A stretch of 39,892 nt of DNA from the UHGV virus genome UHGV-0038300. One strand, given 5' to 3'. This document shows positions 5,059 to 39,684 of the stretch, one piece after another. Source of the DNA: a virus. The stretch's first letter is position 1. The number at the start of each line of letters is the position of its first letter. The position numbers were made by a program, and so were the translations under genes. The notes under the pieces were generated by a model. That model searched no databases. It worked only from the letters and a program-made list of their open reading frames with translations, and was not told where the DNA came from.

Positions 5059-5075
5059 ATTACCTTTCGGGTAAT
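5059..5075. promoter_or_regulatory. 17-bp palindromic operator-like site ATTACC-TTTCG-GGTAAT
   Basis: Perfect 6-5-6 inverted repeat belonging to the dispersed site family; upstream of the LexA box and the tail-fibre gene. Confidence 0.6.
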
Positions 5076-5113
5076 TTGCAAAACGTGCTGGATAGCAAAC
5101 AAATTATTTGCTA

Positions 5114-5129
5114 CTGTATAAATATACAG
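5114..5129. promoter_or_regulatory. LexA (SOS) box CTGT-ATAAATAT-ACAG
   Basis: Perfect CTGT-N8-ACAG with an AT-rich spacer (tactgtataaatatacagtt), 22 bp upstream of the ATG at 5151. Confidence 0.8.
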
Positions 5130-5150
5130 TTATTGCATGGAGAAGATAAG

Positions 5151-5408
5151 ATGCAGCAGTATCACTATCCACTGGAAGACGGATTTACCGAAAGGATTCA
5201 CACGCCGGGAGGCGTCAGATCACTGGTGGAGGGATCGCACTTGATGAAATTACTCCGGGATCTCGATAAGGATGGATTTAATGTCGATGGCCCACTTGCC
5301 GAACTGACTGCACTGATTAACTACGTCACCAGCTCACAGATGTCTATGCGGGATCTGCAAACACATCTCGACTATTGTGCCGAACAATTACGAAAACAAA
5401 CCCGGTAA
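5151..5408 (+). CDS. Small (85 aa) antirepressor-like protein, homologous to the C-terminal domain of the Bro-N antirepressor; candidate SOS-inducible antirepressor
   Basis: RBS ggagaag then ATG 5151. Aligns with the C-terminus of the 6555-7247 product (PL..G....IH.P.GV..L.E.S.LM.LL..L..DG..V.G..AELT......V......RD.QTH..Y). The upstream part of the listed ORF is occupied by regulatory sites. Confidence 0.7.
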   Translation: MQQYHYPLEDGFTERIHTPGGVRSLVEGSHLMKLLRDLDKDGFNVDGPLAELTALINYVTSSQMSMRDLQTHLDYCAEQLRKQTR

Positions 5409-5430
5409 ATTTAAAGGCCGCAAGAGCGGC

Positions 5431-6159
5431 CTATCGTTTCGCTTTGTGCTCATCCCAGCACGTTTTGCACCATGCCATTAAGCCGTCCGCATTTTGATTA
5501 TTAGGGTAAAAGCTGGTTCGTTTTCTGCGGACATTACAAATTGGGCACCACTTCATATGGCGTGTATTCTTTGGGCCATCGAGACACCTTGCACACCACT
5601 TAGTCAATCCATCTGGATTTTTTGACGATTTCCTGAATTTTTCATATGGAAGGTTTATTCTGCATCGCAAGCACTGCTTGCTACCACTTGAAACTCTGTT
5701 AGCTGATTCTTCTTTTGGCGGCGATACAGAAGGTATTCTTGCTGGCTCTGATACTGCCTGAGGTGCTTTTTTAGATGACTGAGACGATATGTCACCACCA
5801 GGGAATCTTCCATGATATGCCGGACGCGTTGACACTCCAGGTGGAAGCTCAGCTGTAAACGGCTTTGGCTGAATCAGTTGCCTCTCTTTTGCTAACTCCT
5901 GCTGTTTATAATATGTCTGGATTACCGCACTATCATAAGCAGGAGGTGCGGAAATATTAGGCGCATTACCTCCAGTTTTTTGAAACTGAGTAGAGGTGTG
6001 TTCTATCACCTGTGTACGATTAATCGTTATCTCCCCATCTTCGGTCTTTATCGTTTTGTTATGATTAACGACCGTACGATCAGAGATCTTAGTCTTGTTC
6101 TGGTTGATAACGTAAATAATCACCGCAACCACACCAACAACTATCCAGAAAACTTCCAT
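5431..6159 (-). CDS. Membrane-anchored protein with a C-terminal duplicated Cys-rich (zinc-ribbon-like) module; function unknown
   Basis: N-terminal TM helix (MEVFWIVVGVVAVIIYVI), Pro/Ser-rich linker, then CLRC...WCARC and CPIC...WCKTC repeats; RBS gaggaaaag before the ATG; operator-like site just upstream. Confidence 0.6.
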   Translation of the reverse strand: MEVFWIVVGVVAVIIYVINQNKTKISDRTVVNHNKTIKTEDGEITINRTQVIEHTSTQFQKTGGNAPNISAPPAYDSAVIQTYYKQQELAKERQLIQPKPFTAELPPGVSTRPAYHGRFPGGDISSQSSKKAPQAVSEPARIPSVSPPKEESANRVSSGSKQCLRCRINLPYEKFRKSSKNPDGLTKWCARCLDGPKNTRHMKWCPICNVRRKRTSFYPNNQNADGLMAWCKTCWDEHKAKR

Positions 6160-37537: not shown

Positions 37538-38181
37538 AAAAATACACGCTAATCTATGCAGATCCACCCTGGGTATACCGGGACAAAGCCGCAGATGGTA
37601 ATCGCGGCGCTGGTTTTAAATATCCAGTTATGAGTGTGCTGGATATCTGCCGCCTTCCTGTGTGGGATTTGGCCGCTGAAAACTGTCTGTTGGCCATGTG
37701 GTGGGTGCCAACACAACCACTCGAAGCACTAAAAGTTGTTGAAGCCTGGGGATTTCGTCTTATGACCATGAAGGGCTTCACGTGGATAAAATGTGGTAGT
37801 CGACAACCAGATAAACTGGTTATGGGTATGGGACACATGACTCGCGCCAATAGTGAAGATTGCCTGTTTGCGGTAAAGGGAAAACTACCTCCGCGCATTA
37901 ATGCAGGGATCGTTCAGTCATTTACCGCACCGCGGCTTGAGCACTCAAGAAAACCAGATGTCGTTCGTGAAAAACTTGTGCAATTGTTAGGCGATGTTTC
38001 TCGCATTGAACTGTTCGCCCGCCAGTCGTCTCATGGCTTCGATGTTTGGGGTAATCAGTGCGAAGACTCGGCAGTGCAACTACACCCTGGATACGCGTTG
38101 GATATTGGCGGATTAACAAATGCATTCAGCAATTCTCCGCTGTCACCAACAGACAACCAGGGGCGGGAGCGTGCTGCATGA
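37534..38181 (+). CDS. MT-A70-family N6-adenine DNA methyltransferase
   Basis: Catalytic DPPW motif (...LIYADPPWVY...) and overall MT-A70-like sequence. Confidence 0.85.
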   Translation: MKKYTLIYADPPWVYRDKAADGNRGAGFKYPVMSVLDICRLPVWDLAAENCLLAMWWVPTQPLEALKVVEAWGFRLMTMKGFTWIKCGSRQPDKLVMGMGHMTRANSEDCLFAVKGKLPPRINAGIVQSFTAPRLEHSRKPDVVREKLVQLLGDVSRIELFARQSSHGFDVWGNQCEDSAVQLHPGYALDIGGLTNAFSNSPLSPTDNQGRERAA

Positions 38182-38372
38182 ACAGGGCATCACCAGCAGA
38201 TTTAAGAAAATGCCTTGAAACTGCAAACATGCTTGCACACAGCGGGATCAGGTTTGTTCCAATTCCCGCTGTCACTGATGCTGAATTTGCAACACTGTCA
38301 GCAATATTCGAAAACAAAATTGAATCACTGGCAGCAGAAGCAGAGATGGAAGAAAATCAGCAGAACTATTAA
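38178..38372 (+). CDS. Small hypothetical protein (64 aa) translationally coupled to the methyltransferase
   Basis: Its ATG overlaps the methyltransferase TGA (ATGA); acidic C-terminus; convergent with the integrase gene. Confidence 0.4.
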   Translation: MNRASPADLRKCLETANMLAHSGIRFVPIPAVTDAEFATLSAIFENKIESLAAEAEMEENQQNY

Positions 38373-38375
38373 ACG

Positions 38376-39626
38376 TTATTCCCCCGCCATCCACTTCTCA
38401 AACTTCGACGGGGAGAACGGAATCAGATCCGTATGCTCCCCGTTAATCCAGGAATCAATCATATCGGCCCACTGCTGCAACATGTAGGCGCGCTGTCTGG
38501 AGTATTCCGCTTTGTTATATACGGCGCGCACACCTTTCTGCTCATGTGCCAGAGCCTTTTCAATCCAGTCTGAAGGATAACCAGCCTCATGCAACAACGT
38601 ACTGGCTGTACGGCGCATATCGTGTACGGTGAAGCCCTGAATATGCTCACCATCTTCATTTATTATTTTCACCGTTCTGTCGATCAGAGAGTTCAGCGCG
38701 GCATTAGATAATGGCTTCCGGAAATTGTAACGACCAGGAACCAGATATTCACTTCCACCAGCGCACATCTGCAACCCAACCAATATATCCTGTGCCTGTT
38801 TAGGCAGGTAAATAACGTGCGCCCGGCTTCCCTTCATGCGGTCTGAAGGAATTGTCCATGTCCATTTTTTAAAATCTATTTCATCCCACGTTGCATTGGT
38901 GAATTCGCCTTTACGAACCATAGTGATAAGCACCAGCTTTAAAGCCATTTTCATAGTGCCCATAGCACCAATGGCATCCAGCGTGCGGAAGAACAGGCCA
39001 ATTTCTTCTGGTGTCAGTGTTCGCTCTCGTGGTTTAAATATGGCGATAGACGAAGGTTTAATGTCAGCCGCAGGATTAAACAAACCATGACCACGGTCAT
39101 TGGCGTGACGGTATACGCTGCTGATGATCTCCCTGGCCTGTACTGCTGTTGCCCGACCACCGCGTTCGACAATCCGGTCACACAAATCACGAACCATCGA
39201 TGTGGTAACTTCAGCCATCATTTTGTTGCCAAGAACCGGAAGTATGTCACGGTCGATCACCGCCTGCTTCATTGCGCGGGTACTGTCAGCCAAGATGACG
39301 TGTTTCATATAACTGTCGGTATGTACCGCAAACGTCTCGGCACCACGAATCTTTTTGATACCGTCACGTTTAGCCGCAGCCGGCGACTGTCCTGCTTTAA
39401 GCAGCTTCTTTGCAGCAATCAGTTCTTCTCGCGCTTCTGCCAGACTGATACCGTCACGCCCATACTGCCCGATTACCAGTGTTTCGCGGCGACCGTTGAT
39501 ACGGTAGTCATAGCGAAACGAGACCGTGCCTGACGTAAGCACAGCTACATACAGCCCGTCACGATCGGAGACCTTGTACAGTTTGTCCTGCGGCTTGAGG
39601 TTTTTTAATTTTGTATCGGTAAGCAC
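38376..39626 (-). CDS. int: Tyrosine-type site-specific integrase (P4-like)
   Basis: N-terminal MLTDTKLKNLKP... arm-binding-type region and a C-terminal catalytic region with R...HDMRRT...Y; adjacent to attR; GTG start. Confidence 0.9.
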   Translation of the reverse strand: MLTDTKLKNLKPQDKLYKVSDRDGLYVAVLTSGTVSFRYDYRINGRRETLVIGQYGRDGISLAEAREELIAAKKLLKAGQSPAAAKRDGIKKIRGAETFAVHTDSYMKHVILADSTRAMKQAVIDRDILPVLGNKMMAEVTTSMVRDLCDRIVERGGRATAVQAREIISSVYRHANDRGHGLFNPAADIKPSSIAIFKPRERTLTPEEIGLFFRTLDAIGAMGTMKMALKLVLITMVRKGEFTNATWDEIDFKKWTWTIPSDRMKGSRAHVIYLPKQAQDILVGLQMCAGGSEYLVPGRYNFRKPLSNAALNSLIDRTVKIINEDGEHIQGFTVHDMRRTASTLLHEAGYPSDWIEKALAHEQKGVRAVYNKAEYSRQRAYMLQQWADMIDSWINGEHTDLIPFSPSKFEKWMAGE

Positions 39627-39667
39627 AATTCACCCGTATAGAAACCATTTTCATGACGGTATGAGAG

Positions 39668-39684
39668 TATACCTTTAAGGTAAT
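39668..39684. promoter_or_regulatory. 17-bp operator-like site TATACC-TTTAA-GGTAAT in the integrase promoter region, nested in a larger inverted repeat (39655-39690)
   Basis: Same site family as the immunity operators; flanked by GACGGTAT ... ATACCGTC. Confidence 0.55.

Follow-up and report, generated by a model that had tools for sequence, protein, structure and literature searches.

The viral genome UHGV-0038300, a stretch of 39,892 nucleotides analysed here in full (the window), contains a complete Uetakevirus prophage of the phiV10/ε15 type that is 96-98% identical to phiV10, PAS61, phiv142-3 and HEMP4. Two copies of the attachment (att) core ATTGAGTGGGAATGATT, a sequence that has been published (PMC9782041), mark the ends of the prophage at 162-178 and 39817-39833, and the whole element together with short host flanks lies inside the window. 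Homology with ZX5 places the insertion site at the 3' end of guaA. The prophage encodes a predicted master repressor, Rep, with a divergently transcribed cro-like gene beside it and two proteins with antirepressor (Ant) domains elsewhere, and its intergenic DNA carries a family of 17-bp palindromes of the form ATTACC-N5-GGTAAT (ATTACCNNNNNGGTAAT). As argued below from sequence comparison, these palindromes are predicted to be the operators of Rep, a reading to which we give a probability of roughly 0.85.

The repetition of the motif is real. Three exact matches (5059, 6179 and 33487) were found against 0.00 expected, and allowing up to two mismatches raised the count to 16, where 1.02 were expected and none of 100 dinucleotide-preserving shuffles gave more than 4. 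Two of these matches, at 1727 and 15670, were rejected as family members: both lie inside coding sequence, each carries two core-base mismatches, and their number is at chance level (~1 expected). A symmetric position weight matrix built from the remaining 14 intergenic matches gave scores of 12.7-26.8 for true sites and at most 11.1 for background. The matrix scan also added two degenerate copies beside 32775, at 32727 and 32758, completing a triple between the cro-like gene and rep; of these, 32758 is an exception to the matrix cut (score 10.6) and was retained for its place in the triple. The 16 credible sites lie without exception in non-coding DNA, which makes up 9.05% of the prophage (162-39833) on a gene map transferred from phiV10 (random-placement P ~2e-17). 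They occupy ~11 separate intergenic locations and are densest around rep, with three on one side and two on the other, while 11 of the 16 fall outside these two flanking clusters. Many are perfect dyads, and the family as a whole is dyad-symmetric as opposed to asymmetric. An earlier sequence-only reading of this DNA had described a genome-wide family of at least 14 such sites, none inside long coding regions, with three between the repressor and the cro-like gene (here 32727, 32758 and 32775) and two at the early-left promoter (here 33487 and 33549). All of this holds, and every coordinate that it listed was recovered (its 30383 being 30382 here); its list lacked the pair 27742/27760 upstream of terS.

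Rep is a 194-residue homologue of the SPC32H repressor of the same name. It matches PDB entry 5D50_A over its full length (phmmer, residues 1-190, E-value 4e-42) and entry 5D4Z, the C-terminal domain of SPC32H Rep, with an E-value of 4e-20, and these two entries are its only sequence matches in the PDB. Entry 5D4Z covers residues 92-198 of SPC32H Rep, the tetramerisation domain. A Pfam scan of Rep returned helix-turn-helix families only, a DNA-binding domain at the N-terminus and an HTH_3-like domain at the C-terminus, with no match to the autocleavage domain Peptidase_S24. The protein had been taken for a lambdoid CI repressor, an assignment that its two helix-turn-helix domains, the lack of an S24 domain and the SPC32H homology overturn. 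Rep is identical to the repressor of phiV10, the closest relative checked, and 100% identical to the ORF21 repressor of ZX5, and it is only 42% identical to the ε15 repressor. Overexpression of the ZX5 repressor abolished free phage, lowered holin and endolysin mRNA by more than 99.9% and shut off lytic transcription (PMC9782041). SPC32H Rep is described, at second hand, as a tetramer that binds palindromic sites and is disassembled by tetrameric Ant (PMC9638917).

The operators overlap or abut the predicted core promoter or ribosome-binding site of almost every transcription unit, all promoters named here being consensus predictions. This holds for the cro-like gene, the operon of early-left recombination genes, the replication genes, the operon running from the DUF1064 gene to a regulator, terS/terL, the tRNA unit next to the head operon, the ant/tail-fibre region, three accessory cassettes and int. 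Promoter-like hexamers stand in fixed register with the operators; a single register common to all the sites was considered and rejected, as at least four arrangements are seen. The −10 hexamer ends two bases inside the operator at 33549, 7312, 30382, 27760 (an extended −10) and one candidate promoter at 6272. At 24944 (toward tRNA-Arg) and 6179, the −10 hexamer TACCTT is itself operator positions 3-8, while at 32727 (cro-like gene) and 39668 (int) the operator sits in the promoter spacer or over the −10. The operator at 6272 abuts the −35 of the conserved isrK promoter. In addition, two operators, 30382 and 27742, and possibly a third, 7312, supply a ribosome-binding site through their gene-proximal half, which lies 0-2 nt ahead of the start codon.

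Parts of the motif thus coincide with −10-like (TACCTT, TATACT) or Shine-Dalgarno-like (AGAGGT) sequences, and this would suit a motif that binds no protein but recurs through related promoters, as a built-in part of the promoter or translation start or as a hairpin in the RNA. Such an explanation is scarcely credible, given that 30444 and 33487, the upstream members of the 62-bp pairs, are perfect dyads although no −10 or ribosome-binding site overlaps them, and that conservation of both half-sites around a variable centre is the signature of a dimeric DNA-binding protein. A terminator or hairpin was likewise rejected, the 6-bp stem having no T-run and the sites not being flagged by a terminator scan.

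The spacing between paired operators is also conserved. In five genomes the early-left pair and the mid-operon pair are each set 62 bp apart, and the distance is 17-18 bp at terS and beside rep. Pairs of Rep N-terminal domains would be expected to read two TTACC half-sites, and a Rep tetramer, comprising two such DNA-binding pairs, could hold two operators at once. Bridging of two operators by one tetramer would explain the conserved pairs of both spacings.

The same motif is enriched in related phages, with 15 matches against 1.2 expected in phiV10, 18 against 0.9 in ε15, 16 against 1.0 in Tyrion and 14 against 0.7 in Klebsiella phage BUCT711, and it is also found in SPC32H, Klebsiella phage Kp4865-1 and a prophage of Serratia with a Rep of 54% identity. 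Matrix scans of phiV10, SPC32H, ε15, Kp4865-1 and the Serratia ficaria prophage reveal a shared layout. Two or three operators lie on each side of rep, one lies 337-371 bp beyond the cro side, and a pair lies in mid-operon; one or two precede terS, and there is one each before the head operon, at ant/tail-fibre, before the lysis genes and at int. When four orthologous operators were aligned over six genomes, 38 of 40 half-site columns were invariant, as compared with 3 of 20 in the spacers and 30 of 160 in the flanks. The recognition-helix segment of Rep, NLVNRW, is invariant in five aligned repressors whose overall identity is only 42-45%, in keeping with a half-site that does not change.

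It might be supposed that only the operators flanking rep are functional and that the scattered copies are weak, non-regulatory or decoys that titrate repressor. Some scattered sites do not lie over a recognisable promoter, and the lysis-gene site has decayed here with no other obvious defect. Against this, the scattered sites are at least as close to the consensus as the ones beside rep (matrix scores 22-27 vs 10-21), their positions correspond and their half-sites do not vary from E. coli phages to Klebsiella and Serratia phages, and several of them overlap a −10 or a ribosome-binding site in fixed register. Decoys or non-regulatory copies are therefore very improbable.

The deposited ε15 records (GenBank AY150271.2, RefSeq NC_004775.2) annotate seven exact copies of the motif as 'protein_bind: repressor', with a function in lysogeny, and four of the seven lie outside the immunity region: before terS, before the head operon, at ant/tailspike and in mid-operon. 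The phiV10 GenBank record has no repressor-site annotation. Neither the motif nor any analysis of operators in phiV10 or Uetakevirus turned up in full-text literature searches, and the comparison rests on the ε15 features and on second-hand text. The sequence-only reading had called dispersed operators unusual for lambdoid CI; in this group of phages they are not unusual, being a genus-wide property already annotated in ε15.

A second conserved motif, CATATGTGGTT-N5-GGTAATA, occurs twice in the window against 0.02 expected, upstream of the tail-fibre gene and of the head operon. In ε15, where copies stand at 2988, 19940 and 24751, the lysis genes have one upstream as well. The motif, which is largely conserved throughout the genus, always lies 45-57 bp downstream of a Rep operator, and it is probably a late promoter or a late-activator site, the candidate activator being the regulator at 27862-28203. 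At the lysis genes, the operator of phiV10 and ε15 is reduced here to a half-site (GTTACC, ~2159), and the late-promoter-like motif is kept.

This regulator, which is encoded just upstream of terS, and the cro-like protein are both conserved in the genus, and Cro-type proteins usually share operators with the immunity repressor in lambdoid switches. One of the two could be the main occupant of the 17-bp sites, which would then constitute a lytic-phase regulon. This is improbable. The ε15 depositors credited the sites to the repressor, binding to palindromic sites is reported for SPC32H Rep (PMC9638917), and the recognition helix of Rep is invariant, as is the half-site. For a late regulator, moreover, the CATATGTGGTT-N5-GGTAATA motif at late promoters is the better candidate target.

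Several observations weigh against Rep operators as the identity of the palindromes. Promoter-like sites were no commoner in a promoter scan of the window than in shuffled sequence. The sites at 5059, 32390 and, relative to the head operon, 24944 do not lie over a promoter, being ~45-60 bp upstream of the nearest plausible promoter-like element. The half-site TTACC is unchanged among 86 Rep homologues (to 52% identity) and in the Serratia prophage, whose helix reads NANLISRW, leaving no covariation to score. The cro-like protein may bind the same sites as Rep, and the degenerate lysis-gene operator, intact in phiV10 and ε15, indicates that not every site is indispensable. Even so, assignment of the palindromes to Rep is well supported, because the motif is densest around rep, is confined to intergenic DNA, stands at promoter and ribosome-binding elements, recurs at corresponding positions across the genus and in a Serratia prophage even as spacers and flanks diverge, and is annotated as a repressor site in ε15. 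Comparison with relatives appears to bear out the earlier proposal of one repressor with dispersed operators.

The mode of induction can be approached through the two Ant-domain proteins of the prophage, one behind a LexA box and the other linked to an operator and a C4 RNA. The gene for the first, a small Ant, adjoins the tail-fibre gene, the same position as SPC32H_020 ant. The LexA box before ant is conserved in five relatives (phiV10, ε15, Tyrion, BUCT711 and SPC32H) and would overlap the ant promoter; Kim and Ryu (2013) reportedly found ant to be LexA-controlled. By analogy with SPC32H, the small Ant is most likely the antirepressor that triggers induction. The second protein carries a Bro-N domain, and its C-terminal residues 164-240 form a second Ant domain that is 43% identical to the small Ant and matches 5D50_E (E-value 1e-13); both proteins belong to phrog_450. 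This Bro-N-Ant gene is separated from the operator and promoter at 6272-6317 by the isrK-like and C4 RNAs. The sequence-only reading had placed an antirepressor under an operator. In this it was correct insofar as the Bro-N gene follows the operator at 6272; the likely trigger, however, is the small Ant, where the operator at 5059 is upstream of the ant promoter.

An isrK-C4-antirepressor module is also present in Gifsy-1, the Stx-type phage PA28 and APSE-1, which are not Uetakeviruses. In these three modules the promoter is conserved, and TTACC-N5-GGTAA was not found within 400 bp. The comparison, made on the modules and the phage group that carries them, serves as a natural swap control in favour of the operator reading.

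With Rep on its operators, the entire genome would stay silent in a lysogen. Going by the homology with SPC32H, DNA damage would remove LexA from its box before ant, and the Ant then made would pull the Rep tetramer apart, so that all operators would empty together. The operator-linked Bro-N-Ant paralogue could then reinforce the switch in a feedback loop. It is conceivable to go further and propose that one non-cleavable tetrameric repressor gates every unit, including packaging and int, in place of an early, delayed-early and late cascade. In this extended model, one tetramer would serve each 62-bp pair, mobile cassettes would gain an operator on landing (the isrK-C4-antirepressor module, with no operator in Gifsy-1, PA28 and APSE-1, being an example), and the second Ant paralogue would make induction self-reinforcing and all-or-none. 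The extended model is offered tentatively, with the odds somewhat against it as a whole.

Table 1. Predicted Rep operators and associated features in the window. Operators and promoters are predictions.
Feature	Coordinates	Strand	Sequence	Context
Rep, predicted master repressor	32846-33430	+		Homologue of SPC32H Rep
Cro-like small repressor	32461-32691	−		Divergent from rep; phrog_35 'transcriptional repressor' (E-value 5e-12); position matches phiV10p41
Ant, small antirepressor	5151-5408	+		85 amino acids; match to SPC32H Ant 5D50_E (E-value 1.3e-46)
LexA (SOS) box	5112-5131		TACTGTATAAATATACAGTT	Perfect box directly upstream of the ant ribosome-binding site; CTGTATAAATATACAG at 5114-5129
isrK-like RNA	6324-6400	+		Rfam isrK Hfq-binding RNA, 74.7 bits (gathering threshold 50)
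C4 antisense RNA	6419-6506	+		Rfam 78.6 bits (gathering threshold 45)
Bro-N protein	6510-7247	+		Bro-N in Pfam; probable ATG at 6556
Operator	5059-5075		ATTACCTTTCGGGTAAT	Divergent region between tail-fibre gene (start 4955, −) and ant (5151, +); 45 bp upstream of late-promoter-like motif 5008-5030 and ~60 bp upstream of likely ant start site; ε15 orthologue (19895-19911) annotated 'repressor'; half-sites invariant in 5/6 aligned genomes, one change in phiV10
Operator	6179-6195		ATTACCTTAAAGGTAAT	19 bp upstream of orf242 start (5431-6159, −); candidate promoter TTGATC-17-TACCTT, −10 = operator positions 3-8
Operator	6272-6288		ATTACCTTTGAGGTAAA	Abuts −35 of conserved isrK/C4/Bro-N-Ant promoter (TTTACA-17-CATAGT, 6289-6317); overlaps −10/+1 of second candidate promoter TTGATT-18-TATCAT (6244-6273)
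Operator	7312-7328		ATTACCTTAAAGGTAAA	Upstream of accessory orf69 (7354-7563) and orf288 (7563-8429); candidate promoter TTGGCG-18-TAATAT ends 2 nt inside
Operator	24944-24960		ATTACCTTTCAGGTAAG	Between head operon (p06 start 24854, −) and tRNA-Arg unit (25282, +); candidate promoter TTGACA-17-TACCTT toward tRNA-Arg; late-promoter-like motif 24881-24903 57 bp off on head side; ε15 orthologue (2931-2947) annotated 'repressor'
Operator	27742-27758		ATAACCACCGTGGTAAT	Ends 1 nt before terS ATG (27741, −); gene-proximal half (GGTGG, − strand) serves also as terS ribosome-binding site
Operator	27760-27776		GTTACCGTTGTGGTAAT	18 bp from 27742; overlapped by extended −10 TGgTACTAT toward terS; ε15 orthologue (12-27) annotated 'repressor'
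Operator	30382-30398		ATTACCTTAGAGGTAAA	Downstream member of mid-operon pair; − strand reads ATTACCTTAGAGGTAAA tc ATG; includes the DUF1064 ribosome-binding site (gene start at 30379), and candidate promoter TTGATT-17-TTTAAT reaches 2 nt into it
Operator	30444-30460			Upstream member of mid-operon pair, its centre 62 bp from that of 30382; just past terminator after P-like replication gene; ε15 orthologue (35906-35922) annotated 'repressor'
Operator	32390-32406		ATTACCTTTGAGGTACG	Between cro-like-gene terminator (32439-32420) and candidate p42/replication promoter (TTGATC-17-CAAAAT), operator centre ~−60 from its start site; counterpart 337-371 bp from rep/cro operators in phiV10, ε15, SPC32H, Kp4865-1
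Degenerate operator	32727-32743		TTCACCCATAAGGTAAC	In spacer of candidate cro-like promoter TTGTTA-17-TATTAT (32745→32717, −)
Degenerate operator	32758-32774		GTTACCTATGAGGTGCA	Middle of triple between cro-like gene and rep
Operator	32775-32791		TTTACCTGTTGGGTAAT	Rep-nearest of triple, 17 bp from 32758
Operator	33487-33503			Upstream member of early-left pair; after rep terminator (33451-33470)
Operator	33549-33565			Downstream member of early-left pair, 62 bp from 33487; candidate promoter TTGACA-17-AATTAT (33522-33550) ends 2 nt inside
Operator	39668-39684		TATACCTTTAAGGTAAT	41 bp upstream of integrase start (39626, −); − strand half GGTATA overlaps candidate −10 TATACT; imperfect half conserved in all relatives
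Second conserved motif	5008-5030	−	CATATGTGGTT-N5-GGTAATA	Upstream of tail-fibre gene
Second conserved motif	24881-24903	−	CATATGTGGTT-N5-GGTAATA	Upstream of head operon
tRNA-Arg (TCT)	25282-25358	+		Downstream of operator-linked candidate promoter at 24944
DGQHR/DndB-like protein	36434-37537	+		367 amino acids, early-left operon; TIGR03187, 192 bits
Tandem direct repeat	31701-31744	+	TGGGATCATTCAACATCCCGTTTTTGGG	Two copies 24 bp apart, within DnaT-like replication gene

Among the genes behind operators, orf242, orf69 and orf288 were given no function by PADLOC and NCBIfam scans. The tRNA-Arg gene overlaps an opposite-strand open reading frame (25288-25539) of the same length as phiV10p04, and SPC32H has a tRNA-Arg at the same place. 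The DGQHR/DndB-like gene has no phiV10 equivalent, and its SPC32H counterpart is annotated as a DNA-sulfur modification protein. The O-acetyltransferase gene of phiV10, which lies between the tail-fibre and lysis genes, is absent here, and ~320 bp of AT-rich non-coding DNA (2095-2415) stands in its place. The tandem repeat in the DnaT-like replication gene was flagged by the terminator scan and could be a set of iteron-like origin repeats.

Prophages of this type are very common in E. coli. A related-locus search of IMG/VR viral contigs returned at least 80 loci, all with a 100% identical Rep, a result that speaks to prevalence only. Scattered repressor sites are not a new idea: the ε15 records label them already, and for SPC32H the mechanism of Rep and Ant has been solved. 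What is new is the catalogue of 16 sites for the phiV10 lineage, the genus-wide layout, the pair spacing, the overlap with ribosome-binding sites and the operator on a mobile RNA-antirepressor module. Taken together, these provide a complete map of the predicted repressor regulon for this prophage type, an incremental gain. They also correct the annotation, the repressor being of the SPC32H type and not CI, and the likely induction trigger being the LexA-controlled Ant. The 62-bp pairs and the operator-linked second antirepressor furnish concrete predictions for the published tetramer model.

Among known systems, ε15 carries the same 17-bp dyad at the same positions, namely terS, the head operon, ant/tailspike, next to the repressor gene and midway through the early-right operon. 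Only seven exact copies are annotated there, whereas the 16 sites described here count imperfect ones too and include sites at int, after the cro-like gene and at the three accessory cassettes. SPC32H shares full-length Rep and Ant homology, the location of ant beside the tail-fibre gene, the LexA box before ant, and the operator motif and layout. Unlike SPC32H, whose annotation shows no gene at the position of Bro-N-Ant, this prophage has a second Ant domain fused to Bro-N, behind isrK/C4 RNAs and an operator.

In phage P1, one master repressor, C1, acts at operators in many scattered transcription units, and these operators are asymmetric and bound by a C1 monomer. The dispersal of operators over separate transcription units is therefore P1-like, as is the order of a C4 RNA followed by an antirepressor gene behind a promoter carrying a predicted master-repressor operator, which resembles the immI unit of P1 (c4 RNA, icd, ant). 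The likeness to P1 drawn by the sequence-only reading is apt in function and in this immI-like unit, but it does not extend to the proteins or the sites: Rep, with 5D50 and 5D4Z as its only PDB sequence matches, is not homologous to C1, the operators here are symmetric dyads, and the trigger would be an Ant behind a LexA box. The lambda CI/Cro switch resembles the region around rep in its divergent repressor and cro-like genes, the three operators between them and the second cluster at the early-left promoter. It differs in that Rep has no S24 autocleavage domain and, by analogy, would be inactivated by an antirepressor, and in that most operators here lie outside the two classical clusters. 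The general contrast between a small number of symmetric operators and a large number of asymmetric ones has been described before (PMC1934351). The stoperators of mycobacteriophage L5, bound by gp71, are similar in that many repressor sites are distributed genome-wide and confined to short intergenic gaps. The L5 sites are asymmetric and orientation-dependent and block elongation, whereas those of the present prophage are symmetric and lie mostly at promoters; the operator at 32390, just after a terminator, is the only one that resembles a possible roadblock.

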